DNA from: an uncultured virus (IMG/VR IMGVR_UViG_3300031841_003153)
Taxonomy: Duplodnaviria; Heunggongvirae; Uroviricota; Caudoviricetes
Virus record (IMG/VR): IMGVR_UViG_3300031841_003153
DNA: 55,112 nucleotides
Direction: 5' to 3' (one strand)
Part shown: one piece after another, positions 40,304 through 54,123 of the stretch
How the letters are laid out: each line of letters starts with the position of its first letter
Numbering within the stretch: the stretch's first letter is position 1
Position numbers and translations under genes: made by a program
Notes under the pieces: model-generated
Told to the model about the DNA's origin: nothing
Database searches by the model: none
The model's input: the letters and a program-made list of their open reading frames with translations, nothing else

Positions 40304-40636
40304 TTTATCACCTTTGTTTGTATGTGAGCCAATGCGTCACATCTTGTTATAGTGTTTTTCCGTAGGTTTTACACATTTTAAAGGTATTTTGAAGTAAAGT
40401 GGGGCAGAAAGAAGCATTCACAGGGGCAGTCTTTGGGGTTTGGGTGGGACATATATTTTTATTTGGGGCCAATTTTGTCTAAACCACCCAGCCGATTTGT
40501 CAATACTAAAAGCAAAAAAAACCTGAAAATAAAATTACCCCCTTTTTTCAGAATTATGCTGTAGACCTATTGACAATCTTGCCGATCTATGTATAATAAG
40601 GGCATACAAGAGACAACAACAACTAAGGAAAACATT

Positions 40637-40768
40637 ATGACAAGTTACGAAAAAGCAATTGCAGAAGTTAAAGAAATGGTCAAAAACGGATCGACTTTGA
40701 GAGAAGCTATCAAAGACGTAGCTTCAGAGTTCGGATTCTTTGAAGCAGAATTATGGGAAGAATTTTAG
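40637..40768 (+). CDS. Small early protein (43 aa)
   Basis: Promoter, CA-rich leader, AAGGAA, then MTSYEKAIAEVKEMVKNG...WEEF. Confidence 0.65.
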   Translation: MTSYEKAIAEVKEMVKNGSTLREAIKDVASEFGFFEAELWEEF

Positions 40769-40856
40769 GATTTTACCCTATTGGGACTTGACAAAACAAC
40801 CGATATCTGTATAATAGAAGCATACAAGAGACAACAACAACTAAACGAGAAAAACA

Positions 40857-41087
40857 ATGACTTTCAAAATGAACGACGAAGTAGTAAACAACATCCTTGC
40901 AATCACTGAGGAACACGGTTTTGAAACCGTTTCCGATTGGGCTGAGTTTGAGGGAGGGCTACACTTCGTTGTGGAAACTATCCAGAACGAACTGTGGTTA
41001 GACTACGATCTGTACTATGATGATCTGGAAGATGCTTGCGATTGGTTGTTTGACCGCGAACAACGACTAGAGCGATTGGAAAACTAA
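40857..41087 (+). CDS. Acidic small early protein
   Basis: Own promoter; D/E- and aromatic-rich 76 aa. Confidence 0.7.
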   Translation: MTFKMNDEVVNNILAITEEHGFETVSDWAEFEGGLHFVVETIQNELWLDYDLYYDDLEDACDWLFDREQRLERLEN

Positions 41088-41190
41088 TCAGAAAAACTTT
41101 CTGATTTTAGGCTAAAGGCTCTTGACAAACTAGCCGATAACTGTATAATAGAAGCATACAACAAACAACAACTAACTAAGGTAAAACATT

Positions 41191-41397
41191 ATGACTAACT
41201 TTCAAAACTTCATCAACAGCGTCGATTGCACCGCCAACATCACCGTAAGCGGCAACGCTTGTAAGGTTGGTTGGACTCACACCACCACCGCCAACAACGT
41301 TTCCATTAACGGAGATCGTGTTATGATGTACGATCACAAGATTAAACGATATATCCACACTCAAATAAAAGATATAAAATCTTTCAAATTGGCCTAA
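41191..41397 (+). CDS. Small early protein (possible SH3/WYL-like beta fold)
   Basis: Own promoter, AAGGT RBS; MYDHKIKRYIHTQIKDIKSF. Confidence 0.65.
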   Translation: MTNFQNFINSVDCTANITVSGNACKVGWTHTTTANNVSINGDRVMMYDHKIKRYIHTQIKDIKSFKLA

Positions 41398-41474
41398 TCA
41401 GCTATTGACAATGCGGACGATAACTGTATAATAGAAGCATACAAGAGACAACAACTACTAACTAAGGTAATAAG

Positions 41475-41630
41475 ATGAAAAAGTTTTTAACAGCTAAAGA
41501 GACTGAGGGAATGACCCTCGACCAATTCGTTGCCGCAATGCGGGAAGGTAAGGTAGAAGTGAAGCCGGAAGGTTCACACGAACCTACAGCCGATCAGGTT
41601 ACTATGGGTGGGCGATTCGGTTGCGAGTGA
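41475..41630 (+). CDS. Small early protein (51 aa)
   Basis: Promoter, AAGGT; MKKFLTAK...EPTADQVTMGGRFGCE. Confidence 0.65.
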   Translation: MKKFLTAKETEGMTLDQFVAAMREGKVEVKPEGSHEPTADQVTMGGRFGCE

Positions 41631-41685
41631 TTCGCCACTGTCAATAGCAAATCCAGAAAATAACTAGGTTTTCTGGAAATCGACG

Positions 41686-41762
41686 TAAGTCCTTACGTAT
41701 CAACGACTTAGGACAAAAATCGGGGCGGCGATTGACGTAACTCCTTATACAGCAACGACTTA
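41686..41762. repeat. 77-bp double-palindrome element, copy 1
   Basis: TAAGTCCTT-N7-AACGACTTA, 27 bp, TAACTCCTT-N7-AACGACTTA. Confidence 0.9.
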
Positions 41763-41992
41763 CAACGATTCTTAAAAACTTTCGGAATTGTGCAGATTTG
41801 GTATTGACATCTACATATCGCAATATCACGATATATCATGACATAAAACCATATGTCCTACCCCATATAATAGGGGTATATGGATAACAGCCAGTGCCAG
41901 TGGTCAGCCAATAATGCAAAAAACTTTGATAAAATTCTAGAAAATAGGCGTACAGGGGTTGACAAATCCTGAAAAGTATGTATAATAGGGGC

Positions 41993-42148
41993 ATGAAAGA
42001 AAGAAAAGAATACGATCACAAATGTTGCTTCTGCGGTAAAAACATGAAATCCGCTGAGAAGCCTCACCCATCATTGAAGGTTTCACACGTCGAGTGTGCT
42101 TTCGAGGCTTGCAAAAAAGTTCGGGAAAAAGTTCAGAATAACTGCTGA
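41993..42148 (+). CDS. Small Cys/His protein, probably leaderless (51 aa)
   Basis: ATG 6 nt after TATAAT; CCFCG...HVEC. Confidence 0.55.
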   Translation: MKERKEYDHKCCFCGKNMKSAEKPHPSLKVSHVECAFEACKKVREKVQNNC

Positions 42149-42221
42149 ACCCTCTTGACAAATGACGATATATAGTATATAATAAGAGCATAACAACAAC
42201 ACTACTACAAAAGGTAAAAAC

Positions 42222-42419
42222 ATGTTTAACGTAGAATTTGAAAACCAAAACGGCGACTGGGCTTTCCGCACTTTCAACACTCAGCAAGCCGCTGACGTGT
42301 TCGCCAAGAACGCCGAGATGCAGGGTTGCAAGATCCTGTTTTGCGGCAATCCTCGCGACGTGTTGGGAGAGCCTACATGGAGCAGCGTGACAATGGATGG
42401 TCGCTTCTCCTGCGATTGA
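42222..42419 (+). CDS. Small early protein
   Basis: Promoter, AAGGT; ends EPTWSSVTMDGRFSCD. Confidence 0.7.
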   Translation: MFNVEFENQNGDWAFRTFNTQQAADVFAKNAEMQGCKILFCGNPRDVLGEPTWSSVTMDGRFSCD

Positions 42420-42426
42420 TTGACAC

Positions 42427-42505
42427 AATCGGATATCCTACCGATTCCAAATAAATTAGGTTCTAGGAATTTAACCGCAAGTTATACTAGGTAATCAAAA
42501 CTGCG
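42427..42505 (+). ncRNA. Tandem double-pseudoknot RNA, copy A
   Basis: Covarying helices with copy at 45383-45462. Confidence 0.65.
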
Positions 42506-42550
42506 ACACTAACACACTAACACACTAACACACTAACACACTACACACTA
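42506..42550 (+). repeat. ACACTAAC tandem repeat (4 perfect plus 2 partial) in a 5' leader
   Basis: Direct reading. Confidence 0.85.
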
Positions 42551-42561
42551 GAGAAAACATT

Positions 42562-42735
42562 ATGAAACAAGATCGTGAACTAGCTGAAATGGCAAAGGCC
42601 GAGCAAGAGGAACTAGACTCGCAAGAGCTTGCCTATCATTGCACCACCCTATCACAAGAGGAAGTAGTGGAGCTATACGTTTCACTCGCTCGCGAGACTG
42701 GCAAGCTACGCCAAGAGATAGACTACAAGTTCTAG
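42562..42735 (+). CDS. Small helical protein (57 aa), possible paralog of 46208-46399
   Basis: MKQDRELAEMAKAEQEELDSQELAYHC... versus ...VKAEQQFLDEQMYRRNLEHC... Confidence 0.6.
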   Translation: MKQDRELAEMAKAEQEELDSQELAYHCTTLSQEEVVELYVSLARETGKLRQEIDYKF

Positions 42736-42745
42736 TCAATAGCCA

Positions 42746-42822
42746 TAAGTCCTTACCACACAACGACTTAGGTGAGGTAGGGCCGCCCCGATTGACGTAA
42801 GTGCTTACACAGCAACGACTTA
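42746..42822. repeat. 77-bp element, copy 2
   Basis: 25+27+25 bp. Confidence 0.9.
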
Positions 42823-42966
42823 CGACGATTAGAATTATTTCTTAAAAACTTTCGGAATTAGGGTGCAGAGGGGTTGACAAATCTGCCGATATATGTATAA
42901 TAGGGGAGTCAAGCAGAGAGGAAAGCACCTAGCCGACTGGCAGGCCGCTCTCGGAAGTCTCGACAC

Positions 42967-42980
42967 TGATCTTTGACAAT
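42967..42980 (+). promoter_or_regulatory. boxA-like antitermination site TGATCTTTGACAAT
   Basis: Also at 47403 and 47639; resembles rrn boxA; precedes RNA cluster. Confidence 0.5.
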
Positions 42981-43124
42981 TTGGTTGTTTTTTTCATTTT
43001 CACTGGCGAAAGCCCTTGACAAATGACGATAACTATGGTATAATGATAAAATGTTAAACGCGAGTCGGGCAAGATGTCCCGATCTGTAAGATCAGACAAA
43101 TTCACAAAATCGCGAACAATACAA

Positions 43125-43179
43125 GAGGCAAACCAACAGGTCGGCTTATGCTTAACGGCAGGTTGGATAGTAAGTCCTC
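43125..43179 (+). ncRNA. Structured RNA (GAGGCAAACC family), copy A
   Basis: Near-identical copy at 47959-48013 with compensatory stem change. Confidence 0.65.
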
Positions 43180-43256
43180 ACCAATACAATACGGGGCTTC
43201 TCAAAGGCGAGAGCCGGACGCTACTGCGTTTCACAGAGTTTATTTCTAACCCTTTA

Positions 43257-43329
43257 GCGGGGGTTGACCTAACAGGCGTGAGACGTTGCCGGTGTAAGGC
43301 AGGTTCGATTCCTGCAAGCCTCTGCCCAC
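43257..43329 (+). ncRNA. tRNA-like RNA (T-arm, long acceptor-like stem, CCA)
   Basis: GCAGG-TTCGATT-CCTGC; GCGGGGGTT/AGCCTCTGC; ends CCA; no canonical D or anticodon arm. Confidence 0.5.
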
Positions 43330-43335
43330 AATACA

Positions 43336-43590
43336 ATGTTTAAGTGTGTTATCACTGAACACTTTGGTCCCTTTAACGGGTTTGGCGGTTACGGTTCGAT
43401 CACTCAGGTCGGAATGGATCGCTCACCCGCTAAGGCAGTCGCCAAGGCTAAGGCTTGGAACATCACTGACGGTAAAGCTATCAGGCGATACGTCAATGAG
43501 AGTCCTGCCGGTGCTGGCGGTGGCGTTCCAATTATGACTGATTTCACCTTGCTAAAAAACGGCAAGGTAGTCAAGCAAACTTGGGATTGA
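43336..43590 (+). CDS. Small early protein
   Basis: 84-aa ORF after RNA cluster. Confidence 0.6.
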   Translation: MFKCVITEHFGPFNGFGGYGSITQVGMDRSPAKAVAKAKAWNITDGKAIRRYVNESPAGAGGGVPIMTDFTLLKNGKVVKQTWD

Positions 43591-43620
43591 CCTAGTGTGA
43601 AGTCGTCGGCCTTTCGAGGT

Positions 43621-43661
43621 TGTGGAGTTTGATAAGCTCTGTCGTAATCACTCAATTATCA
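43621..43661 (+). ncRNA. 3'-UTR pseudoknot element, copy A
   Basis: Covaries with 48263-48303. Confidence 0.55.
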
Positions 43662-43690
43662 CAAAATTTTCATTTTCCTCTTGACAACCG

Positions 43691-43767
43691 TAAGTCCTTA
43701 TATACCAACGACTTAGAGCGGACCGGGCAGCCCAGATCGACGTAAGTCCTTATATACCAACGACTTA
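43691..43767. repeat. 77-bp element, copy 3
   Basis: Two identical boxes TAAGTCCTTATATACCAACGACTTA, 27 bp apart. Confidence 0.9.
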
Positions 43768-43969
43768 CATCAAACACCGGCGAACACCAGCACCCCAGCA
43801 AATACCATGCCAAAGCCTGTCTTTTCTAAAGTAAAAAGACTATGTTTCACAGCCAGCGGTCAGTAAACTTTGATAAAATTATATAAAAATAGTGGCGTAG
43901 GGGTTGACAAACAGTCGATATTATGTATAATAGAGGACATACAACAAACAACTCTTTAAGGTAAAAATT

Positions 43970-44104
43970 ATGACTCACAAAATCATCACCCTCTGCATCG
44001 ACGCTCTTATTCAACTTGCTTCCACCAAGGGCAATAGTGGGCAATTCAACCGCGACGTAGACGACGCAATAAAATCTTTGCGAAATGTCAAGAAATACCT
44101 TTAG
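43970..44104 (+). CDS. Small early protein (44 aa)
   Basis: Promoter, AAGGT; MTHKIITLCID... Confidence 0.6.
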   Translation: MTHKIITLCIDALIQLASTKGNSGQFNRDVDDAIKSLRNVKKYL

Positions 44105-44170
44105 AACCTCTTGACAAATGACGATAAGTATGGTATAATAAGAGCATAACAAGTTAAGGATTTTAAGATT

Positions 44171-44674
44171 ATGAAAAAAGCATTTGTATTTGATTTTGAT
44201 GACACTCTCGCAACCACCGATTGCAAGGTTATCGTTCGTCGTCGAAACTCCATTGGTGGAAGGTTTACTGTTCGTAAATTGACTCCTGCTGAGTTCAATA
44301 CTGACGTTCTCGCAGACGGTGAAGAATATGACTTTTCCGAGTTCCGTTCTGCTGAGTTCATCCGTTCGGCTAACCCTACTTTTCTTATGGCTCTTGCCCA
44401 AGAGGTTCACAATGAAGGGCATAGCGTTTATGTTCTTACTGCTCGTGCTGATAATGTGGCCGATGCAATCACTAGCTGGTTGCTTGGTTTTGGTGTTAAA
44501 CCTGTTCGCGTTTTCGGTGTTGGTTCCGATGATAAAAAGGTAGACATTCCAGCAGAAAAGCAAAAGGTTTTGAGAACCTTAAATCAGCTTTTCGATGTTG
44601 TCTACTTTTACGATGATGACCAACACAATGTTGACCTTGCTGGTCAAGTTGGTGTCAAGACCTATTTGGTATAA
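44171..44674 (+). CDS. HAD-superfamily phosphatase
   Basis: Motif I FDFDDTL, motif II VLTAR, conserved Lys, motif IV FYDDDQHN. Confidence 0.85.
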   Translation: MKKAFVFDFDDTLATTDCKVIVRRRNSIGGRFTVRKLTPAEFNTDVLADGEEYDFSEFRSAEFIRSANPTFLMALAQEVHNEGHSVYVLTARADNVADAITSWLLGFGVKPVRVFGVGSDDKKVDIPAEKQKVLRTLNQLFDVVYFYDDDQHNVDLAGQVGVKTYLV

Positions 44675-44687
44675 TTGAGGTAAAATT

Positions 44688-44825
44688 ATGAAAGTTTATG
44701 TTGTTTTATATGATGATTACGAAATGCTTGAGGTTGTGGGCGTCTTTATCAATGAGGGTGAGGCCGAGAAGGTAGCAGCAACAAGCAACAAATACTACAT
44801 ACGAGAATCCACTTTGATGAAGTAA
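44688..44825 (+). CDS. Small protein (45 aa)
   Basis: GAGG RBS; MKVYVVLYDDYE...; its TAA stop is the first 3 nt of element copy 4. Confidence 0.6.
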   Translation: MKVYVVLYDDYEMLEVVGVFINEGEAEKVAATSNKYYIRESTLMK

Positions 44826-44899
44826 GTCCTTTGGTGGCAACGACTTAGGGCAAAAATTGTTGCGGCGATTGACGTAACTCCTTATACACCAACGACTTA
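44823..44899. repeat. 77-bp element, copy 4
   Basis: 25+27+25 bp. Confidence 0.9.
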
Positions 44900-44985
44900 C
44901 GACACAAACAAAAAACTTTGATAAAATTATGAGAAAATGGTGGTGTAGGGGTTGACAAATCGACGATATAGTGTATAATAGAAGT

Positions 44986-45108
44986 ATGAAATTTAAGAAA
45001 TCACGACAAATGATCGCCTTTTGGAACATCTTCGCCTATGGCGGAAATCGCCCCACTAATGTCACCCCCGCACGTTGGGCAGCAATTTGCAAATTCTTTG
45101 AGAATAAT
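44986..45108 (+). CDS. Small leaderless ORF (40 aa)
   Basis: ATG 6 nt after TATAAT. Confidence 0.5.
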
Positions 45109-45209
45109 CTCTAAGATTGACCTAACGTGTCACTACCATAGACGATAATACTAATATAAGAGATCAACGGTTGATCTCAAATTCATTCCTCTAACCAAAG
45201 GTATTTGTT

Positions 45210-45374
45210 ATGACTTATAAGACAAACAACTACTACTGGGACTCAGTTGCTAACCGCAAGCCGGTTGCTCCCGAAACCCCCGCACAACGTGCGGATCGCA
45301 AGCAGCGTGAAGCTGATGCGTATGCTGCTTATGTAGCAAAGTACGGGCATAGCCCATTCAAACGCACCAAGTAG
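45210..45374 (+). CDS. Small protein (54 aa)
   Basis: AAGGT RBS; MTYKTNNYYWDS... Confidence 0.6.
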   Translation: MTYKTNNYYWDSVANRKPVAPETPAQRADRKQREADAYAAYVAKYGHSPFKRTK

Positions 45375-45382
45375 TGCGGCTT

Positions 45383-45462
45383 ACTCGGATCTCCTGCCGA
45401 ATATAAATAAATCAGGTCTTGGAAGTTAAACGGTAAGTTGTACCAAGCAATCAAAACTACCG
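45383..45462 (+). ncRNA. Tandem double-pseudoknot RNA, copy B
   Basis: Covaries with 42427-42505. Confidence 0.65.
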
Positions 45463-45503
45463 CCCAACAACATTCTTTACAACACTTACCAAAGGTAAAC
45501 ATT

Positions 45504-45734
45504 ATGACTACTAAACAATTTGACGTAACCTACATCAATCCTTTCAGCGGTCGCGAAGTGACCGAGGTTGAGGTTTCCGCCAACTACCTATCACAAAACG
45601 ATAGCGGCGAAACCGTTTTTCGTATGAACGACTTTCATCCCGCTTGCGAAGTGGTGCGAGTCGTTGAGGTTTCACAGGCTCGGCTTGACGCTAAGGCTGC
45701 ATACTTCGCTCGTTGGGGTACTGCAAATGAGTGA
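45504..45734 (+). CDS. Small protein (76 aa)
   Basis: AAGGT RBS before MTTKQFDV. Confidence 0.65.
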   Translation: MTTKQFDVTYINPFSGREVTEVEVSANYLSQNDSGETVFRMNDFHPACEVVRVVEVSQARLDAKAAYFARWGTANE

Positions 45735-45890
45735 GTTTTTCTCTACTGCGTTTGACTTGTTTATGATCTGCATCTCCGCATTCGCGTTTATGTGCGGGGT
45801 AATGTCAGTTGTTTATATGCTTTTACATTGGAGCTAATTATAGCGGGCGTTCTGTCAATAGACATTTTCCAAATTTTCTCAGAATAGTCA

Positions 45891-45967
45891 TAAGTCCTTG
45901 TGCAGCAACGACTTAGGGCGTCGGCGGCTGCCCGGATCGACGTAACTCCTTACACACCAACAACTTA
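45891..45967. repeat. 77-bp element, copy 5
   Basis: 25+27+25 bp. Confidence 0.9.
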
Positions 45968-46207
45968 CAACTATTTTGTCTTTTCTAAACTTTTCCGATA
46001 GAAATTGACCAGACTTGTCATACCGATGTGCGATAATATAAGTAAGGAGATAACGAAATGGAAATTGTAATTTGTAGTGCGGCAGCTTTGGTGATGGTTC
46101 AAGTTTTTATGATAATCTTTGAAGAAAGTAAGAGATAGGGCTTGACAAATGCCGATAAGTATGGTATAATAATAGTATAACAAAAACAACAACAAAAGGT
46201 AAAAACT

Positions 46208-46399
46208 ATGAAACTTGAAAACGACCCACAATTCCAAGCCGAAGTTAAAGCCGAACAACAGTTCCTCGACGAACAAATGTACCGGCGTAACTTGGAGCAT
46301 TGCACTAAAGAACAACTCCTCGAACTGTGTATCGGCCTGCTCCACAGCGAAAAAGAGAAGCGGGAAGAATTGGATAAAATTCACGGAATTATCCGATAG
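46208..46399 (+). CDS. Small helical protein
   Basis: Promoter and AAGGT RBS. Confidence 0.7.
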   Translation: MKLENDPQFQAEVKAEQQFLDEQMYRRNLEHCTKEQLLELCIGLLHSEKEKREELDKIHGIIR

Positions 46400-46471
46400 A
46401 CCCCTTGACAAATAGCGATAAGTATGCTATAATAGGGGCATACAACACACAACACTTTTAAAGGTTTTACT

Positions 46472-46876
46472 ATGAAATTTGAAAACACCATCGGCGGAAA
46501 ACTGGTTGCCGAACTTCGCCAAGCTACCCGCGAATTGATCGTGGTTCCTAACTCTTGCCTACCTGCCGAAATGCACGATAACGTGCGTGGCGGTCGTACT
46601 CTTGCACGTTTGGAAGAACTGTGTGAGAAGCGTGACGGTATCACCGCTCACACAAAACTCAAGGCTCTAAAGGCTCGCAACGTCGAGCGTTTGGCTGCTC
46701 AAGTAGAAGCGAAAAGCGTTTTTGCTGCTCATGGTGATTTCGTCGATCTTACCGGCGAATTGGATTACTCGGATAACGAGTGCGATGATTTGCAGTTGAC
46801 CAAAAATATGCAAGCCTTGGTTGGCGGCATGGTCAACGGTGGATTGATCGACGCTGACGATCTTTTGGAGGATTGA
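46472..46876 (+). CDS. Hypothetical early protein
   Basis: Promoter and AAGG RBS, 134 aa. Confidence 0.75.
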   Translation: MKFENTIGGKLVAELRQATRELIVVPNSCLPAEMHDNVRGGRTLARLEELCEKRDGITAHTKLKALKARNVERLAAQVEAKSVFAAHGDFVDLTGELDYSDNECDDLQLTKNMQALVGGMVNGGLIDADDLLED

Positions 46877-46880
46877 TTTT

Positions 46881-47150
46881 ATGAAAATTCAACTAGCCGC
46901 ACTTGCAAGACTTCGCACAAACTCCACCGCGATGTTTGAATTTCCCGCTGAATGGGGCGAATTTGATTTTACGGATACCAACGAGCAGATTCGTGCTTGT
47001 GAATTGATTATGTCTGAAACTGGTGCTATGTGGATTCCTGTAGCATACGCAGAAGCACACAACGAAACCCAGATAGAGCAGTTCCGTGATTCAGTTTTAA
47101 AGCAGATGGGTGATATACCTGCCTGTGACGTAGAACAAAAGTGGGAATAA
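46881..47150 (+). CDS. Hypothetical protein
   Basis: GGAGG RBS, 89 aa. Confidence 0.7.
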   Translation: MKIQLAALARLRTNSTAMFEFPAEWGEFDFTDTNEQIRACELIMSETGAMWIPVAYAEAHNETQIEQFRDSVLKQMGDIPACDVEQKWE

Positions 47151-47213
47151 TGCTTGTCAACCCCAAAACCTTCTATTTTCTCAATTTTTTTATAGCTTTT
47201 TTTCTTGCTGTCG

Positions 47214-47290
47214 TAAGTCGTTTACTGGCAACGACTTAGGTCGGCGGCGGCTGCGGCGGGCGACGTAAGTCCTTTCATACCAACAACTTA
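47214..47290. repeat. 77-bp element, copy 6
   Basis: First box has perfect arms TAAGTCGTT/AACGACTTA. Confidence 0.9.
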
Positions 47291-47846
47291 CGACGATCCC
47301 GAAAAACTTTTGAAATAATCTCATAAAAAGGTGGCCTACCCCTTGACAAATGGACGATATTGTGTATAATGGGGGTATGAGAACGGCAAGCAAGCCCCTC
47401 ACTGATCTTTGACAATTTGGTAGTTCAACATTCTCCACGGGGAGGCGGTAAGCTGTGCCGCCAAAGTAATGGAAGTAACAGCCTCAGAAAATTTCCCCGA
47501 TTTTTACAATTTTGGTCATGATGCCCCTTGACAAATGCCGATAATTATGGTATAATGGGGACATGACAAACGAGATCGCGGGAACTCGAAAACACCCCGC
47601 CAATGCAGTAGAACATTGTAAACAACTCTACGGGACATTGATCTTTTACAATTTGGTTGTTTTTGGAATCGCCCTGATTCGAGGCGGTGCAGGCGAAAGC
47701 CGTAAGACTAACAATATCGGACGCGAACCGGATAGCCACAAGTGAATCCGGCAGCATCAAAATCCACCAATACAGGGCTTGACCCGTAAACCTCGCCCAA
47801 GTCGCGAGTATAGCTGGCGAGCTATTCCAAGATACGCACCATACAA

Positions 47847-47950
47847 TGACTGGTAGTTGGGACAGGATGCGAGGGTTCGACTCCCTCTGGAAACATTGGC
47901 GGCATAGGCTTGATCAGCCACCTGCGAGGGTTCGACTCCCTCACCAGTCG
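47847..47950 (+). ncRNA. tRNA-like RNA with two identical T-arms
   Basis: TGACTGGT/ACCAGTCG closing stem; TGCGAGGGTTCGACTCCCTC twice. Confidence 0.55.
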
Positions 47951-47958
47951 CAATACAA

Positions 47959-48013
47959 GAGGCAAACCAGCCGGTCGGCTTATGCTTAACGGCGGGCTGG
48001 GTAGTAAGTCCTC
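47959..48013 (+). ncRNA. Structured RNA (GAGGCAAACC family), copy B
   Basis: See copy A. Confidence 0.65.
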
Positions 48014-48025
48014 ACACAATACACT

Positions 48026-48235
48026 ATGCCTATGACTTGTGTCGTAGCGGTTCCTTGCGTCAAGTGCAAGAATACCCAAGAAGTCCCAGTTGACTTTGAG
48101 GGTTTTCAGGCTTTGCAATCAGGTGAGTATATCCAAGAAGCTCTACCAGAGCTTGATGCGGATATGCGAGAGCTTTTCATCTCCGGCATTTGTCCTAAAT
48201 GCTGGGATGAGATGTTCCCATCTGACGAGGATTAG
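48026..48235 (+). CDS. Small Zn-finger-like protein
   Basis: CVKC...RELFISGICPKCWD. Confidence 0.7.
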   Translation: MPMTCVVAVPCVKCKNTQEVPVDFEGFQALQSGEYIQEALPELDADMRELFISGICPKCWDEMFPSDED

Positions 48236-48262
48236 AACCCGCTACCGTTTCCGGTTCGCCGG

Positions 48263-48303
48263 TGTGGAGTTTGATTAGCTCTGTCGGAATTACTCAATAA
48301 TCA
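48263..48303 (+). ncRNA. 3'-UTR pseudoknot element, copy B
   Basis: See copy A. Confidence 0.55.
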
Positions 48304-48317
48304 AAACAATTCAATAA

Positions 48318-48494
48318 GCCCCTATAGTTTATTTGGTTAAAACACTATCTCTAGCCAAACTGGTTTGATCGCCAGTGATTCTACAATCTAAGTGGTGGAC
48401 GCACTTACTGGGTTGCGTTGGGTTGATCTCCAACGACACGAATCAGGTTAGGTTCAAGATAGAGAAAATGGTTCGATTCCATTATGGGGAAGCA
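48318..48494 (+). ncRNA. tRNA scaffold with about 100-nt structured insert in the anticodon loop
   Basis: D-arm GTTT-ATTTGGTTA-AAAC, anticodon stem CTATC/GATAG, T-arm AATGG-TTCGATT-CCATT, CCCC/GGGG acceptor; insert 48351-48451. Confidence 0.6.
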
Positions 48495-48606
48495 CATTCT
48501 GATAACGGGGCGTCATAGCCGAGAGGCAAGACCACTCACGCCCACAACCCCCAAACGGGGGAGAGAGAAGTAGGGTTGGCACACTATTTGCAGTAGGTAA
48601 TCGACG

Positions 48607-48683
48607 TAAGTCCTTACGTGGTAAGGGTTTAGGTGCAATCGGGCAGCCCCGCGTGTCGTAAGTCCTTTGGTGACAACAACTTA
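48607..48683. repeat. 77-bp element, copy 7
   Basis: Right-arm variant AAGGGTTTA. Confidence 0.88.
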
Positions 48684-48758
48684 CAACAAATCCTAAAAAC
48701 TTTCAAAAAAAGCTATTGACACCCACTTGACTTTGACGATGTATATAGTATAATGATA

Positions 48759-48823
48759 GAGTAAGCAGGGCAGCAAGATGGAACGGCCTCACAAGTTGGA
48801 ACCCACTTGCCCTGTCTTACCTC
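48759..48823 (+). ncRNA. Promoter-proximal sRNA, conserved stem with variable core, copy A
   Basis: GAGTAAG(A)CAG...CTGTCTTACCTC shared with 50525-50600. Confidence 0.5.
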
Positions 48824-48942
48824 AACTAAACTGATCGAACATTGCTAGAACCGCCAGCAAAAAAACAAAATTAAATTAAAGATTGGGGGTTGACAATGAC
48901 GATAACTATAGTATAATTAAGACATAACACGAAGGAAAGATT

Positions 48943-49113
48943 ATGAAAGAGAAATGGAGTTTGGTACTTTTGATTGTATCTTTTACGCTTGGTTGTTTGC
49001 TTCTTGGTTGCAGACAACCAGTGAGAAACTATAAGATCGTAACCGGATCGCCTGACGTATGGGCGGCAGAACCTAAACAAAAAGTAGAATTCACAGTAGA
49101 GTGGAAACAATGA
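48943..49113 (+). CDS. Small lipoprotein (56 aa)
   Basis: MKEKWSLVLLIVSFTLGCLLLGC lipobox; AAGGA RBS; ATGA overlap with next gene. Confidence 0.6.
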   Translation: MKEKWSLVLLIVSFTLGCLLLGCRQPVRNYKIVTGSPDVWAAEPKQKVEFTVEWKQ

Positions 49114-49313
49114 AGATTAAAAAGAATCAACAGTACGGCATGGATCGGATCGAAACCGATCAAGGTACAGTGTTCTTCCGCAACAAAAACGGTTTCTTTG
49201 ATGCGGCAGGAGAACCGGCCCAACTGTCTAGCATGGCACAGTTAAGAAGATTTGAGGCAAACGAAAATGCAGCACAATGGAGAAAAGTTAAAAAAAATAC
49301 TAAAGACACTTGA
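49110..49313 (+). CDS. Small protein
   Basis: ATGA coupling; MKIKKNQQYG... Confidence 0.6.
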   Translation: MKIKKNQQYGMDRIETDQGTVFFRNKNGFFDAAGEPAQLSSMAQLRRFEANENAAQWRKVKKNTKDT

Positions 49314-49359
49314 CAAAGCCGATAACTACTGTATAATAAGAACATAACACAAAAGGAAA

Positions 49360-49590
49360 ATGACGATGAGTGAGATTGCAGACGTAAAGGTTAAGATACT
49401 GTTCTTTGAGCCATGCACCGCGACGAACTTTGAGCCAGAGTATCAGTTGCGACTCATGGATGGAGAGGAGGGGTTCGACAGTGAGATCGTCCTTGCCACT
49501 GGGAATACTGCTGGTGCAGCAGCCAGAAAGGGGAAAAGAGCATTGAAGCGACTGTTAAAAGAACTTGAAAAGGAGATGGAAGATGAGTAA
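49360..49590 (+). CDS. Small protein
   Basis: Promoter and AAGGA RBS. Confidence 0.65.
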   Translation: MTMSEIADVKVKILFFEPCTATNFEPEYQLRLMDGEEGFDSEIVLATGNTAGAAARKGKRALKRLLKELEKEMEDE

Positions 49591-49756
49591 GGAACTGAAA
49601 GCAGAAAACGAGCGACTGCGTGAGGAAAACGAGCGACTTCGTGAAATAGTCAGTGAGGTGGAGAACCTTCACTACGGGACTGATCTTTTTACCTCGTGTG
49701 CAGCCGGAGAAGCTGACCGGCTCATTGAGCTAATCGAAAGTGAGATGCCTTTTTGA
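49583..49756 (+). CDS. Small coiled-coil protein
   Basis: LKAENERLREENERLRE. Confidence 0.6.
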   Translation: MSKELKAENERLREENERLREIVSEVENLHYGTDLFTSCAAGEADRLIELIESEMPF

Positions 49757-49921
49757 TTTTGTTCAAGATACCCCTTGACAACTGCCGATAATACTGTATA
49801 ATGGAACATATGAGAATGACAAGTTGATAACGAGAGCGGGTTCGCGAAAAGCGAATAGAGAAGGCTAAAACCCGTAAGTCGTCACGATAATTTTCCAACA
49901 CAACACTTTGAAAGGTTTACT

Positions 49922-50095
49922 ATGACTGATTTAGAAAACGACCCACTTTATATACTGCTCAATATTGATCGGCACGGTTCAGACGACGAACCACACTACG
50001 AAGATGACGATTATTCGGAGGGTTTCCAAAACGGCCCCTTCGATATGCACCTTGACGATTACGTTTCCGAAGATGGGGATTATTGCAATGTATGA
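49922..50095 (+). CDS. Very acidic small protein (57 aa)
   Basis: AAGGT RBS; MTDLENDP...DDEPHYEDDDY. Confidence 0.6.
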   Translation: MTDLENDPLYILLNIDRHGSDDEPHYEDDDYSEGFQNGPFDMHLDDYVSEDGDYCNV

Positions 50096-50270
50096 TGAAG
50101 ATTATGATAGCCTTGACTATTGGATGGACTGCGACGAAGAAGATGATCGCAGGGTAGAAGCGGAGCTATTGCGTCAGGCTCAAGATTTTGACGCAGATTT
50201 TTATGGTGATCCAGAACCTACCGAAGATGATTACCAAGACCTTTTAGATGAGTTAGAATATCCCCAATGA
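50088..50270 (+). CDS. Very acidic small protein (60 aa)
   Basis: MYDEDYDSLDYWMDCDEEDD...; overlaps previous stop. Confidence 0.6.
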   Translation: MYDEDYDSLDYWMDCDEEDDRRVEAELLRQAQDFDADFYGDPEPTEDDYQDLLDELEYPQ

Positions 50271-50373
50271 GTGCTGGCGAATTTGTGTGGGGCTTCATCG
50301 GTGCTGGTGCTATTTGGTACATCATTGGTGTAGCTCTGTACGGTTTTTGGTGTGGCCTGACTGGAAAATGACG

Positions 50374-50450
50374 TAAGTCCTTTGATACCAACAACTTAGG
50401 ACGGGCGGGGCTGCGGCCCGCGACGTAAACCCTTTGATACCAACGACTTA
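50374..50450. repeat. 77-bp element, copy 8
   Basis: 25+27+25 bp; left-arm variant TAAACCCTT in second box. Confidence 0.9.
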
Positions 50451-50524
50451 CAACAATTCTAAAAAAACTTTGAGATTTCCTATTGACAACCCCTTGACTT
50501 TGACGATACATATAGTATAATGAT

Positions 50525-50600
50525 AGAGTAAGACAGCCCAATTAAAGCCTCATAAATCAAAAGGGTTCAGGCGGTATGGCTTCCCGTCCTGTCTTACCTC
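50525..50600 (+). ncRNA. Promoter-proximal sRNA, copy B
   Basis: See copy A. Confidence 0.5.
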
Positions 50601-50695
50601 AACTAAACTGATCGGACAGCATAGACACAGCCAGCGAAAAAGAAAAAAAAGATTTTACCCCTTGACATTCGCAAAACATATGGTATAATAGAAGT

Positions 50696-50881
50696 ATGAA
50701 AGACACAATGAAAGACTGGATCGTAAAGATCAACAAAGACACAAGCTGGTCAGTGACCAACAAAGTAACAAAAGAACACCGAAAGATGTGGAGTAAACGA
50801 GATGTCGAAAATTTCCTCGACTGGCAAGAGAATTGCCATGCCCAAGCTAAGGGCAGCAACGATGAAAGATCGTCGCACTAA
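50696..50881 (+). CDS. Small leaderless ORF
   Basis: ATG 6 nt after TATAAT. Confidence 0.55.
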   Translation: MKDTMKDWIVKINKDTSWSVTNKVTKEHRKMWSKRDVENFLDWQENCHAQAKGSNDERSSH

Positions 50882-50949
50882 GCGTAAACGTACACGCCAA
50901 GCACAACGTAGTGCGTGGCAGAAAGATTGTAACTAGAAAGGTTAAAAAG

Positions 50950-51099
50950 ATGATTAAGTTAATCAAAGACAAAGAGACGAAAACCAAGATTCGCTACACT
51001 GTGACCGGTGACGTATCCGGCAGCATCTATGTGGACAAGGATTCAGACCTTGCAAAAGAAACTGAAATTGTTTTGGAAATTGCTCAAGTTACCGCTTGA
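50950..51099 (+). CDS. Small protein
   Basis: AAGGT RBS before MIKLIKDK. Confidence 0.6.
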   Translation: MIKLIKDKETKTKIRYTVTGDVSGSIYVDKDSDLAKETEIVLEIAQVTA

Positions 51100-51159
51100 C
51101 ATTGACGATAAATATAGTATAATGGTAGAGTACAGTTAACAACACTTTTGGAGAGACTT

Positions 51160-51396
51160 ATGAAAGTCAAAACTATCGTAGAGTTAAAATTCGATCACGC
51201 TTACACTAGCTATCGAGCATTGACGTTCCACGATTCCGATCAGAACGAAGTCTGCATCAACATGACAGACGACCAGTATCTCGCACTAGCAGAGACACTA
51301 AACGGCAAAGCGAAGCGTATTCGCGAAGAACGTGCCGACGAAGCTGCGGAAGCAGCAAGGGTGGCAGAACTCGCAAAGGAGAATGAGGATGAGTAA
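51160..51396 (+). CDS. Small protein
   Basis: Promoter and GGAG RBS. Confidence 0.65.
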   Translation: MKVKTIVELKFDHAYTSYRALTFHDSDQNEVCINMTDDQYLALAETLNGKAKRIREERADEAAEAARVAELAKENEDE

Positions 51397-51565
51397 CGAA
51401 GCTCAAAAACCGATTGTCGCAGTCGGAACAAAACTTGCGGCTGGTACTGTTGTCGCCATCAATGGCAACTCTGTTTCGATTGACACTGCGGAAGGTGTTA
51501 AGCAATTTAGTTTTTCTCAAGTAGAGGGTTTCATCAATGATGAACGATTTGTATCTCAAGCGTAA
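51389..51565 (+). CDS. Small beta-rich protein
   Basis: AAGGAG RBS, overlapping upstream stop. Confidence 0.6.
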   Translation: MSNEAQKPIVAVGTKLAAGTVVAINGNSVSIDTAEGVKQFSFSQVEGFINDERFVSQA

Positions 51566-51740
51566 TGAACGCAAAGTCAAGTTCTTGTACCCCAAGAACG
51601 GTAACCGCAACATCCTTCGGGAAGTTGAGGGTGTGAAGGTTCGTTCCTTCACCGGTCCAAATGGTCGCGGTATTACCGTGGCTGAAAAGAACGGCTTACA
51701 CAAGTCGTTTTCAATCGCTAAGTGCGTAGCTTCACTTTAA
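51537..51740 (+). CDS. Small basic protein, possible WYL/SH3-like
   Basis: VKFLYPKNG...REVEG...HKSFSIAK. Confidence 0.6.
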   Translation: MMNDLYLKRNERKVKFLYPKNGNRNILREVEGVKVRSFTGPNGRGITVAEKNGLHKSFSIAKCVASL

Positions 51741-51856
51741 ACTAAGCTAACCTTTCGTGTTGTTGCGAAGATGCGGGACGGGAAACGTAAGCGTTTTGGG
51801 AGTCATGACCCATGTAAGTCGTGTGCTGCACAAGTCCCGCTTCTTTGTTTTTATAT

Positions 51857-51992
51857 CTAGGGGTGCTTGCATGATTCCTATGGCAATGTGGAAACCCTAC
51901 TAAGGGGGCTGAATAAGCCATAACACAATAAGGTGCAAGAGCCGGTCCGCCGGTAGCGTGGTTAATCGTGGGTTCGACTCCCACACTCCTAG
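51857..51992 (+). ncRNA. tRNA-like RNA (8-bp acceptor-like stem plus T-arm) with large internal domain
   Basis: CTAGGGGT/ACTCCTAG stacked on GTGGG-TTCGACT-CCCAC; inner stems CTTGCA/TGCAAG and TATGGC/GCCATA. Confidence 0.55.
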
Positions 51993-52004
51993 CTTTTATC
52001 GACG

Positions 52005-52081
52005 TAAACCCTTGGTATCAAACGACTTAGGGCGGGCCGGGCAGCGGCGGGCGACGTAAGTCCTTTAGTGACAACGACTTA
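52005..52081. repeat. 77-bp element, copy 9
   Basis: 25+27+25 bp. Confidence 0.9.
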
Positions 52082-52198
52082 CGACGATTAAAAAAACTTC
52101 TTAAATTTCTTGGTTTTTCTATAGACCACCCCTTGACAATGCCGATAATTACTGTATAATGAAAGGGTAATCAGTTAACAACTTTGAAAGGTAAAAAG

Positions 52199-52366
52199 AT
52201 GGAAGATTTTGATTTCTGCGTAATTTGTGACTGCTTCATTTCACACGTTCCCGATCCCGACGCCCTCACGCATATTTGCGACGATTGTTCCGATGATGGT
52301 TGGGCAGAATTTGACGGACAGCCCGACGAGATGCAAGAATGGCATGATTTTGATCCAGATTGTTAG
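52199..52366 (+). CDS. Acidic Zn-ribbon-like small protein
   Basis: CVICD...ICDDC; ends DGQPDEMQEWHDFDPDC. Confidence 0.65.
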   Translation: MEDFDFCVICDCFISHVPDPDALTHICDDCSDDGWAEFDGQPDEMQEWHDFDPDC

Positions 52367-52447
52367 AAAAAAAGTCAAGTTTACCCCTTGACAATGACGA
52401 TCTATATAGTATAATAATAGAGTAATCAACCACAAAAGAGAGAAAAA

Positions 52448-53176
52448 ATGCACGTTACACTCAACATGGCATCCGGCAATCGCAAAGTCGGTGCAATCCC
52501 AGTATCAACCACAGAAGCAGAATCCTGTCCTTCATCATGTCCTCTCAAGTCGCCTCACGGTGCAGGTATCGCCAAAGACGGTGATTGCTACGCAGCGTTC
52601 GGCCCGTTGGGTATGCACTGGCGTAAGATCGGTAAAGACGGTCGCGGTATCATGTGGTCGCTATTTTGCAAGGCAATCAAAAAACTTCCCAAGGGTCAAC
52701 TATGGCGACACAATCAAGCCGGTGATTTGCCCAAGTCTCACACCGATTCCGCTGATCGTGACATTGTTGACGCTGAAAAGTGTTTCGAGTTGTCCAATGC
52801 AAGCCGTGGCAAACGTGGTTGGACGTATACGCATTATGATATGTCCAGCCCGTTAAATCGTGCCGTTGTTGAAGAAATGAACGACGTTGACGGTTTGACC
52901 GTTAATCTATCCGCTGATTCACTCAGTGAAGCCGATCAATATTATGATCTTGGCATAGCACCCGTGTGCGTTACGCTTCCCAAGGACGCACCGCATCGCG
53001 GTAACAAAACACCAAAGGGTTTGCCCGTTGTTGTTTGTCCTGCTCAGACTCAGGACGAAATGAGTTGCCAACAATGCAAATTGTGCCAAGTTCGTGACCG
53101 TAAGTCTATCGTTGGGTTTCTTGCCCACGGAACGGCAAGTAAAAGACTCAGCCAAAAATTGGAGGGGTTTGTATAA
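52448..53176 (+). CDS. Cys-rich phage protein (possible Fe-S/metal enzyme)
   Basis: CPSSCP...CYA, WRHNQAGD, WTYTH, CPAQ...CQQCKLC...FLAHG. Confidence 0.65.
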   Translation: MHVTLNMASGNRKVGAIPVSTTEAESCPSSCPLKSPHGAGIAKDGDCYAAFGPLGMHWRKIGKDGRGIMWSLFCKAIKKLPKGQLWRHNQAGDLPKSHTDSADRDIVDAEKCFELSNASRGKRGWTYTHYDMSSPLNRAVVEEMNDVDGLTVNLSADSLSEADQYYDLGIAPVCVTLPKDAPHRGNKTPKGLPVVVCPAQTQDEMSCQQCKLCQVRDRKSIVGFLAHGTASKRLSQKLEGFV

Positions 53177-53241
53177 TGGAGTGGGTTCTAGTGCTGCTCG
53201 TTTGTATATTGTTATGTTTGTTTTTAGTCGAAAGGTAAGCT

Positions 53242-53508
53242 ATGAAAAGTTTAGTATTGTTTAGTTATCGTCAACCCGTCGAAGGTTACAAGTTTCGTTG
53301 GGGAGTTTTAGAATCTCGTCGGGATACCGACAAGCACCCCGTATGGAACGACACCTACCGTTCCGATGATCCAGAGTTTAAGCGTTCGCGTGACCTTGAC
53401 ACGGTTCTAACCCGTGACGGTGTGCGGGCGTTCTACCGTCAACGGCAACACTGGAAGCTGAAAATCCCGCTACTGGGTTCGCTTGTCAAGCCTATTTTGG
53501 CAAAATAG
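53242..53508 (+). CDS. Small protein
   Basis: AAGGT RBS, 88 aa. Confidence 0.65.
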   Translation: MKSLVLFSYRQPVEGYKFRWGVLESRRDTDKHPVWNDTYRSDDPEFKRSRDLDTVLTRDGVRAFYRQRQHWKLKIPLLGSLVKPILAK

Positions 53509-53540
53509 CTTAAAATAGCTAAAATTTTTATTCGTCGCCG

Positions 53541-53617
53541 TAAGTCCTTTACTGGTAAGGGTTTACGTGCGGCGGGGCAGCACCGCTGAACGTAAGTCCT
53601 TATCTCACAACAACTTA
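53541..53617. repeat. 77-bp element, copy 10
   Basis: 25+27+25 bp. Confidence 0.88.
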
Positions 53618-53694
53618 CGTCAATCTAAAAAAATATCCTAAAAAGATTCATGATACCCCCTTGACAATGACGATATATACTGTATAATAGGAGT

Positions 53695-53907
53695 ATGAAC
53701 ATGAAAGAACAACGAGCTATTGCAGACAAATTCACAGCAGATACAGGTATCTACACAAGCTATTGTGAGTCTTGTGAGATGTGGATCGTTCACTGCCCGG
53801 AGTGTAACCATAACTGGTGCGGTGGTGGTTGCGGTTGTGGGTATAATATCTTACTCAATAACAAACAGGCACAACTAGACGAAATGTTGGAGGCTATCAG
53901 TGAATAG
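53695..53907 (+). CDS. Small Cys-rich protein, leaderless
   Basis: ATG 6 nt after TATAAT; CESC...CPEC...CGGGCGC. Confidence 0.65.
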   Translation: MNMKEQRAIADKFTADTGIYTSYCESCEMWIVHCPECNHNWCGGGCGCGYNILLNNKQAQLDEMLEAISE

Positions 53908-54123
53908 TATAAATTATGAAACCGTGATTGCCCCAAATGGCAAATGGTACGATGTTCAGGTCAATATTGGAATGAGTTGGCGGGATTGTCCATTCTTCAA
54001 GATTGTGGGCCATACTGATTGGCTGATTGGTGATCTTGTTGCTGCTAAAAAATGGCTAGAAATCCATAAAAGTTAAAGTTGACCCCTTGACTTTGACGAT
54101 ATATACTGTATAATGGAAGTGTT

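Follow-up and report, generated by a model that had tools for sequence, protein, structure and literature searches.

The window (the whole 55,112-nucleotide stretch of uncultured-virus DNA analyzed here, IMG/VR IMGVR_UViG_3300031841_003153) is part of a large marine tailed phage, with terminase, portal, and sigma factor families present and an open reading frame (ORF) of 3,770 amino acids. Its capsid protein clusters with viral proteins, and the only match among named phages is Bacillus phage G (22%). Between 40.5 and 54 kb, the + strand carries 26 sigma-70-like promoters with tiny ORFs in between. The promoters of this array (40570-54120), which are consensus matches only, are near-consensus sigma-70 sites that share a GAT-A spacer motif, and repeated intergenic motifs precede each of them. 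We infer that the promoter-array region is the early, host-takeover region of the phage. It also encodes a HAD-family protein (44171-44674, + strand) that resembles the phosphatase part of polynucleotide kinase and could serve in RNA end repair. ARAGORN called no ordinary tRNA in the window, and Rfam gave no match at the gathering cutoff anywhere across it.

At 48318-48491 on the + strand lies a tRNA-framed RNA that runs from G1 to the discriminator base A73 and carries a 101-nucleotide (nt) domain in place of the anticodon loop, as identified from the sequence, its homologs, and ARAGORN and Rfam searches. It is followed by a partner RNA of ~90 nt, here called F (48492-48582, + strand), which starts at frame position 74 and has paired ends and two inner hairpins. 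A gene for a 69-amino-acid CxxC...CxxC protein (phrog_20898; 48026-48235, + strand) is a frequent but not constant upstream neighbor. The nearest sigma-70-type promoter 5′ of the element lies at 47528-47556 (+ strand; a 12-of-12 match), with no terminator-like site detected within 47400-48900. Nine of the 10 metagenome homologs have a perfect promoter whose end lies 18 nt upstream of G1.

The nearest related viral record lacks this region. For positions 47750-48650, 94 to 100% of the sequence words were found in each of 14 seawater, marine, or aquatic-viral DNA runs from six studies, and nine of these runs were flagged as a possible source. A contig from a DNA run spans 47990-48520 with no differences and may come from the same population. 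Among the contigs listed, those from RNA runs derive from relatives, one spanning 48179-48360 (and thus the first 10 nt of the insert) and another 48487-48581. The comparison covered three RNA runs and one DNA run of the 24 listed, all as contigs, and the RNA-run contigs bear on neither transcription nor splicing.

The frame follows the canonical tRNA order of D-arm, short variable loop, and T-arm, and the initial annotation was right in describing U8-A9, a D-arm with GG, a short variable loop, a T-arm, and an insert at 48351-48451, all of which are present. The 5′ strand of the acceptor stem (48318-48325, + strand), with a Thr-type start, pairs with 48484-48490; the 4-bp D-arm (48327-48343, + strand) has the stem GTTT/AAAC and GG in its loop; the variable loop is 4 nt; and the T-arm (48467-48483, + strand) reads AATGG-TTCGATT-CCATT, with the loop changed to TTCGAAT in homolog L161. 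In addition, U15 could pair with A48 (A15 in L161). An anticodon stem was also claimed correctly, although it is a 6-bp helix, CTATCT/AGATAG (5′ strand 48345-48350, + strand; 3′ strand 48457-48462), and not the 5-bp CTATC/GATAG first proposed. In L161 and L120, this stem has 7 bp of unrelated sequence, such that the lineages differ completely. In place of a 7-nt anticodon loop with U33 and a purine at position 37, we found the 101-nt domain, the first helix of which (P1) is stacked on the anticodon stem, and a 5-nt bulge on the 3′ side between the two (48452-48456, + strand), which is not conserved and would be the sole source of an anticodon if the RNA were spliced.

Several results set the element apart from a chance arrangement. 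It is one of two calls that ARAGORN makes in the window at its default threshold with introns allowed, and L161 scores 31 bits on the Rfam tRNA model RF00005 (gathering cutoff, 29), with 111 nt looped out. T-arm-like hairpins with at least 4 of 5 stem pairs occur five times in the 55 kb, all on the + strand between 43 and 52 kb; the fifth (51968-51984) is not preceded by a clear tRNA frame. Among 41 distinct ordinary tRNAs of related phages, T4, and T5, the one closest to the 5′ half is a tRNA-Thr and the one closest to the 3′ half in the window is a tRNA-Val; the best T4 match of the model is also tRNA-Thr. L120 has G8, a D-loop without GG, and the T-loop TGCAATT, and the elbow therefore departs somewhat from the canonical form. 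Irregularities in the acceptor stem, which may hinder RNase P, occur in 12 of the 13 known loci; in the window, the stem pairs with either one bulged U or two mismatches (6-67 and 7-66), and its G1-A72 mismatch is unique, position 72 being C or U in the 12 other loci. With these qualifications, the observation of a tRNA frame with a replaced anticodon loop is confirmed.

The inserted domain (48351-48451, + strand) consists of P1 (48351-48356/48446-48451) and two three-way junctions in series, as defined by covariation. P1 is followed by an AA linker, the P2 hairpin, and P3, which encloses P4 and the P5 hairpin. P2 (48359-48376, + strand) carries the 8-nt loop UUUGAUCR at 48364-48371, and 4 of its 5 pairs show compensatory changes with the loop kept. 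P3 (48377-48444, + strand; paired strands 48377-48381/48440-48444) closes the second junction and shows one U-A-to-A-U swap in L120. By alignment and folding, P4 (48384-48415, + strand) has an internal loop and an invariant GACG tetraloop (48398-48401), and P5 (48416-48435, + strand) carries the 8-nt loop NUUGAUCW at 48422-48429, a near copy of the P2 loop; for comparison, a common 6-mer arises in 0.2% of trials with two random 8-mers. There may be a resemblance to the 5′ end of 16S rRNA both in the octamer of the P2 loop and in a hairpin upstream of the element (48266-48281). Two of the helix sizes first read in the insert needed correction (P2 and the P3 core each have 5 bp), and over the TAAGTG/CACTTA register the homologs prefer the GACG tetraloop (closed by G-C, U-A, and R-Y) with a lower CAAT/GTTG helix.

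Across seven insert sequences from four lineages, 14 of the 30 nested pairs change on both sides, and these fall in all six nested helix segments. Shuffled alignments averaged 6.9 double-changed pairs and none of 500 reached 14 (a figure not to be read as a probability, since there are few lineages and their relatedness inflates the control, and each helix was checked pair by pair), and slid controls gave 0 to 1. The close homologs alone supply eight compensatory pairs, all within the insert, and RNAalifold predicts the same helices independently. The fold of the insert alone has a z score of −3.1, with 1 of 300 shuffles equally stable, and that of the whole element has a z score of −2.09. Invariant unpaired bases concentrate in both hairpin loops, the GACG tetraloop, and the junctions; freely changing stems with fixed loop and junction bases are what binding surfaces usually show. 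Pairing of the P4 loop with the 3′ bulge as a pseudoknot looked possible in the window but was dropped, as it has a G-A mismatch in three of six close sequences and the bulge is unrelated in L161 and L120. A reading of the twin loops as T-loops was weakened by variation of the first P5 loop base (G, U, or C).

Including the window, we know of 13 loci holding eight distinct sequences from four lineages, and all five insert helices are kept in the 12 homologous loci. Metagenome contigs scanned with a sequence pattern yielded 10 matches, all of them true homologs, with five distinct sequences; because the pattern fixed both loops, the 3′ strand of the anticodon stem, and the T-loop, these parts are invariant by construction in 10 of the 12 homologs. 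The other two were reached in other ways. A model built from the close homologs found the distant, full-length L120 (84.9 bits) among loci fetched via a neighboring protein, an insert-only pattern added L161 (150 bits on the model), and a pattern placed in F, independent of the loops, matched exactly these two loci, both of which keep the loops. The identities of frame, insert, and F to the window are 97, 80, and 90% in L098, 69, 77, and 90% in L161, and 55, 66, and 89% in L120. In the distant lineages, the frame thus drifts fastest (55 to 69%), the insert is intermediate (66 to 77%), F is the best-conserved part (89 to 90%), and every helix still pairs. Drift of the frame with its pairing kept implies that shape is conserved rather than tRNA identity.

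The element is patchy, being present in 1 of 65 related viral records and 0 of 8 near-complete ones. No copy of the insert outside a tRNA frame was found (the insert model gave three matches in 55 sources and one among the 65 viral records), and the homolog searches yielded no homolog without the insert (an empty allele). In viral contigs, a D-arm pattern found four ordinary tRNA-Thr genes, an exact 17-mer had no match, a pattern of tRNA ends with a long gap had two matches, both due to chance, and the insert pattern had 13, of which 2 were homologs and 11 had no model score. Pattern scans of bacterial and archaeal genomes gave no match and then one, by eye in a coding sequence without flanking stems, and blastn against 50,697 phage records returned only short chance or T-arm matches. 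Neither the insert nor F has a family in Rfam 15; at E values of up to 10 there were weak matches only, including a rejected one to RAGATH-16 (18.5 bits against a cutoff of 65.6). A full-text literature search, in which few subscription papers were covered, found no title or start of an abstract describing this family or class. The element is a new RNA family of a known but unexplained kind.

The initial annotation had left two readings side by side, a natural tRNA-scaffolded RNA and an unusually small or protein-assisted intron, and had named a match to a known intron or tmRNA family, or an insert structure without conservation (a decayed pseudo-tRNA), as refuting outcomes. Neither outcome was found. 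Rfam gave no such match, the insert helices are conserved by compensatory change, and it is the scaffold reading that is supported. With a folded domain of 101 bases where the anticodon should be, the RNA is almost certainly unable to read codons. The other reading is an intron that proteins remove to yield a working tRNA. With introns allowed, ARAGORN does report a tRNA-Asn(GUU) whose 99-nt intron follows U33 and has G as its last base, in both the window and L098, and Lak megaphages carry tRNA introns described as "enigmatic" (PMC6784885). However, the ARAGORN product needs a 6-bp stem and has C37, its frame is Thr-like and not Asn-like, and the same cut reads GUA (Tyr) in 6 of the 10 close homologs, the frames of which are otherwise near-identical; at the default threshold with introns allowed, ARAGORN makes no call in L161 or L120.

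We examined all anticodon registers on stems of 4 to 7 bp in the eight sequences and found no excision register with a common anticodon across the lineages. On a 5-bp stem, U33 is out of reach of any cut in four of the sequences (the window, L098, L099, and L161), and the triplet differs between homologs at every cut. Only if the stem is shortened to 4 bp, leaving a pairable C32-G38, do the six close sequences have CUA or CCA in common, and this register is impossible in L161 and L120. The variable 3′ bulge, from which an anticodon would have to come, reads GTTCA, GTACA, ATAC, or ATAAA among the lineages. An amber-suppressor product was rejected, since it arises only on the 4-bp stem and is absent in two lineages, and the long genes of the window are open under translation table 11. 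Nor does the structure suit a known intron class. Group I introns have a catalytic core, about 200 nt or more, and a U-G pair at the 5′ splice site, whereas the insert has 99 to 101 nt, a U-A pair at the ARAGORN cut site, and no Rfam match; for a group II intron (domain V, six-domain core), Rfam gave no match at E values of up to 10 in 47700-48700. An archaeal-type tRNA intron was likewise rejected, as the bulge-helix-bulge is absent (there is a single 3′ bulge of 4 to 5 nt and none on the 5′ strand), and the splicing endonuclease (PF01974) and RtcB families were found in none of five related records, of which just one, a fragment of 21 kb, contains the element. No exon-exon junction appeared among the 15 joints listed of 66, in a comparison of contigs in which the RNA runs represent only relatives. 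We regard removal of the insert as very improbable, and comparison of the sequences makes it highly likely that the RNA is unspliced and non-decoding.

Decay or a chance arrangement of tRNA parts would account for the G1-A72 mismatch in the window, the irregular acceptor stem, and the patchy distribution among relatives. It would not account for the retention of all helices through compensatory change over 55 to 77% identity, or for a dedicated promoter in 9 of 10 close homologs, and we give it hardly any credence.

The 3′ end of the frame was first read as an AGCA in place of ACCA. The AGCA is present but is not a defective CCA; that reading was wrong in emphasis, because the GCA after A73 begins the invariant downstream RNA, and a missing CCA is not a defect, since the ordinary tRNAs of related phages often have no encoded CCA. 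The related-phage tRNA arrays in L086 and L091 (genomes G005 and G006), for instance, have nonstandard T-loops and often no encoded CCA. F adjoins the frame at zero spacing in 13 of 13 loci. All 10 metagenome homologs run on into this sequence beyond A73, bar one base in two loci, and so do L161 and L120. Its inner hairpins covary, and its ends pair with each other. RNase Z cuts after the discriminator, and a cut after A73 would release F precisely at its paired 5′ end.

The strict linkage could instead mean that the frame and insert form the front half of an uncut RNA of ~265 nt, with F as its key module and the tRNA part as a handle or processing element. The zero spacing would fit such a fusion, without the A/C-rich linkers found between other RNAs of the cluster, as would the position of F as the most conserved part in distant lineages and the presence of the element upstream in both IMG/VR matches for F. 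Moreover, the invariant GACGC of P4 is complementary to an invariant GCGUC in F, a coincidence estimated to arise by chance about 1 time in 10. Pairing of the F ends from position 74 is, on the other hand, what would be expected of a piece freed by RNase Z, and the insert is under strong constraint of its own, which indicates that the front half does more than direct cleavage. We consider the uncut RNA rather unlikely, as an alternative compatible with the protein or kissing roles discussed below, and cutting of the frame from F in vivo probable.

Comparison of the loci establishes the cloverleaf frame, the five-helix domain, the lack of a conserved anticodon, the strict linkage to F, and the promoter array. 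On these elements, we propose that the locus probably specifies an early noncoding phage RNA built on a tRNA-Thr frame, unspliced and without a decoding role. From general tRNA biology, the host RNA polymerase would transcribe the element early, RNase P would take off a 5′ leader (some 11 nt long in those homologs that carry the promoter), the RNase Z cut would set F free, and CCA may be added to the frame. Given these steps, the frame would be both a processing signal and a stable carrier. The domain would then show its two UUGAUC loops and its GACG loop to a partner, and the RNA might titrate or recruit a host RNA-binding or tRNA-binding protein, as a decoy or scaffold in host takeover. The context and the pattern of conservation point to this job, to which we give slightly less than an even chance; we rank a protein partner first because of the repeated identical loops and the early timing, and RNA-RNA kissing second.

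In the latter case, the GAUC loops would kiss within one molecule or join molecules into dimers or rings of tRNA elbows, and a second contact may come from the GACG loop, a sequence that self-kisses in a retroviral RNA. Both loops hold the GAUC palindrome (a perfect 6-nt palindrome in both L120 loops), and loop-loop pairing keeps four invariant pairs plus G-U/A-U. There is precedent in the symmetric kissing loops of OLE and GOLLD, which switch palindromes, including GAUC (Kretsch et al. 2025, PMC12286853). Set against this, the loops show no compensatory changes, one of the six pairs is U-U in five of seven sequences, 28% of random 8-nt loops contain a 4-nt palindrome, and the sister inserts mostly lack these loops, so that kissing seems unlikely to be the function. 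More speculative still is a combined picture in which dimers or rings formed via the twin GAUC (and GACG) loops present multivalent elbows that soak up a host defense protein that senses or cuts tRNA, RNase Z frees F as a second effector, and the clade swaps domains as a modular toolkit.

Related loci hold tRNA-topped RNAs with differing inner domains, and the window holds two more of them. The RNA at 43193-43326 (+ strand) has a 7-bp acceptor stem, a T-arm, and a multihairpin domain replacing the anticodon arm; its copies in L002 and L003 are ~86% identical with a compensated T-stem, and a more distant one is found in L116. The RNA at 47848-47951 (+ strand) has an acceptor stem, two identical T-arms, and a hairpin whose loop reads TGATC; ARAGORN labels the RNA a Leu tRNA interrupted by a 22-nt intron, and L099 has a variant. 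Nearly unchanged copies (2 differences over 117 nt in X15) occur in contigs from three RNA runs, the other pieces of which differ more. A small RNA-like element at 47774-47846 (+ strand), with two hairpins whose loops are complementary and no Rfam match, is 95% identical in L002 and L003 and has variants in L098-L105 and L171. A structured element composed of a closing stem and a long hairpin is duplicated at 43121-43189 and 47955-48020 (+ strand) and also found in L098-L105. Further tRNA-framed RNAs with other inserts lie in L109 (~4450-4605), L115 (~7750-7905), L001 (4617-4750), and L101 (near 2270, − strand); those of L109 and L115 have a D-loop whose sequence complements that of the variable region. 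A P4-like hairpin, ATG-GACG-CAT, occurs in L115; the insert there was rejected as a homolog, with the GACG hairpin in common by eye and no score on the insert model. The clade seems to shuffle RNA modules in these clusters.

Several known RNAs combine tRNA features with a foreign domain. tmRNA has G3-U70, no D-stem, and a tag reading frame; the element resembles it in having tRNA-like ends joined by a large structured domain but differs in its D-stem, its C3-G70 pair, its domain of only 101 nt, and its lack of a conserved tag frame, and neither Rfam nor ARAGORN calls a tmRNA in the window. Y RNAs of the YrlA type mimic the D-arm, T-arm, and acceptor of tRNA and carry another module on the anticodon side, and one member is described as cut by RNase P and gaining CCA (Chen et al. 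2014, PMC4201824). In that account, however, an internal stem-loop serves as the acceptor, and the two ends of the RNA make up a Ro60-binding stem with GNCGAA, whereas here the ends form the acceptor. The GNCGAA motif is absent from all seven sequences, Rfam gives no Y RNA match, and the TROVE (Ro60) gene was found in none of five related records. In Lak megaphages, tRNA genes, one for Thr among them, carry unclassified inserts (Devoto et al. 2019, PMC6784885). As described there, and compared by description, the Lak introns have an assignable anticodon, insert-free alleles, and near-identical inserts; the element here has no common anticodon, its insert covaries, and the searches turned up no empty allele. 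tRNA finders label genes like the present one as intron containing (tRNA-Asn with ARAGORN), so some reported phage "tRNA introns" may be alike.

The closest parallels are the stable tRNA-like RNAs of T5 and T4, which have stood for decades without a known function. T5 RNA1 and RNA2 (AY543070.1, 30501-30644 and 32959-33083), annotated "tRNA-like stable RNA with unknown functions," share with the element free paired 5′ and 3′ ends, an acceptor stem, and a T-arm; the predicted fold of RNA1 adds a D-arm and puts a long helix where the anticodon arm would be. The T5 inserts are smaller, and the element differs in its two three-way junctions, twin loops, and fixed partner RNA; the insert model (R2) finds nothing in this stretch of T5, and model R1 gives RNA2 11 bits. 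T4 species 1 (rnaC) and species 2 (rnaD; NC_000866.4) are likewise small stable phage RNAs in a tRNA cluster, with roles described as unknown (PMC3014915). Like the element, rnaC has a T-arm and an acceptor-like stem at its end, but its predicted fold has no tRNA-like D-arm and it has no insert homology, and model searches found no homology of the inner domain to T5 RNA1 or T4 species 1. In architecture, the element is built like the T5 RNA1/T4 species 1 type, with acceptor and T-arm ends, a foreign domain, and no anticodon. To this type, the family adds a compact domain supported by covariation, two repeated invariant loops that can be cleanly mutated, and a fixed partner RNA, and it shows that the anticodon arm of a tRNA serves phages as a natural site for folded cargo.
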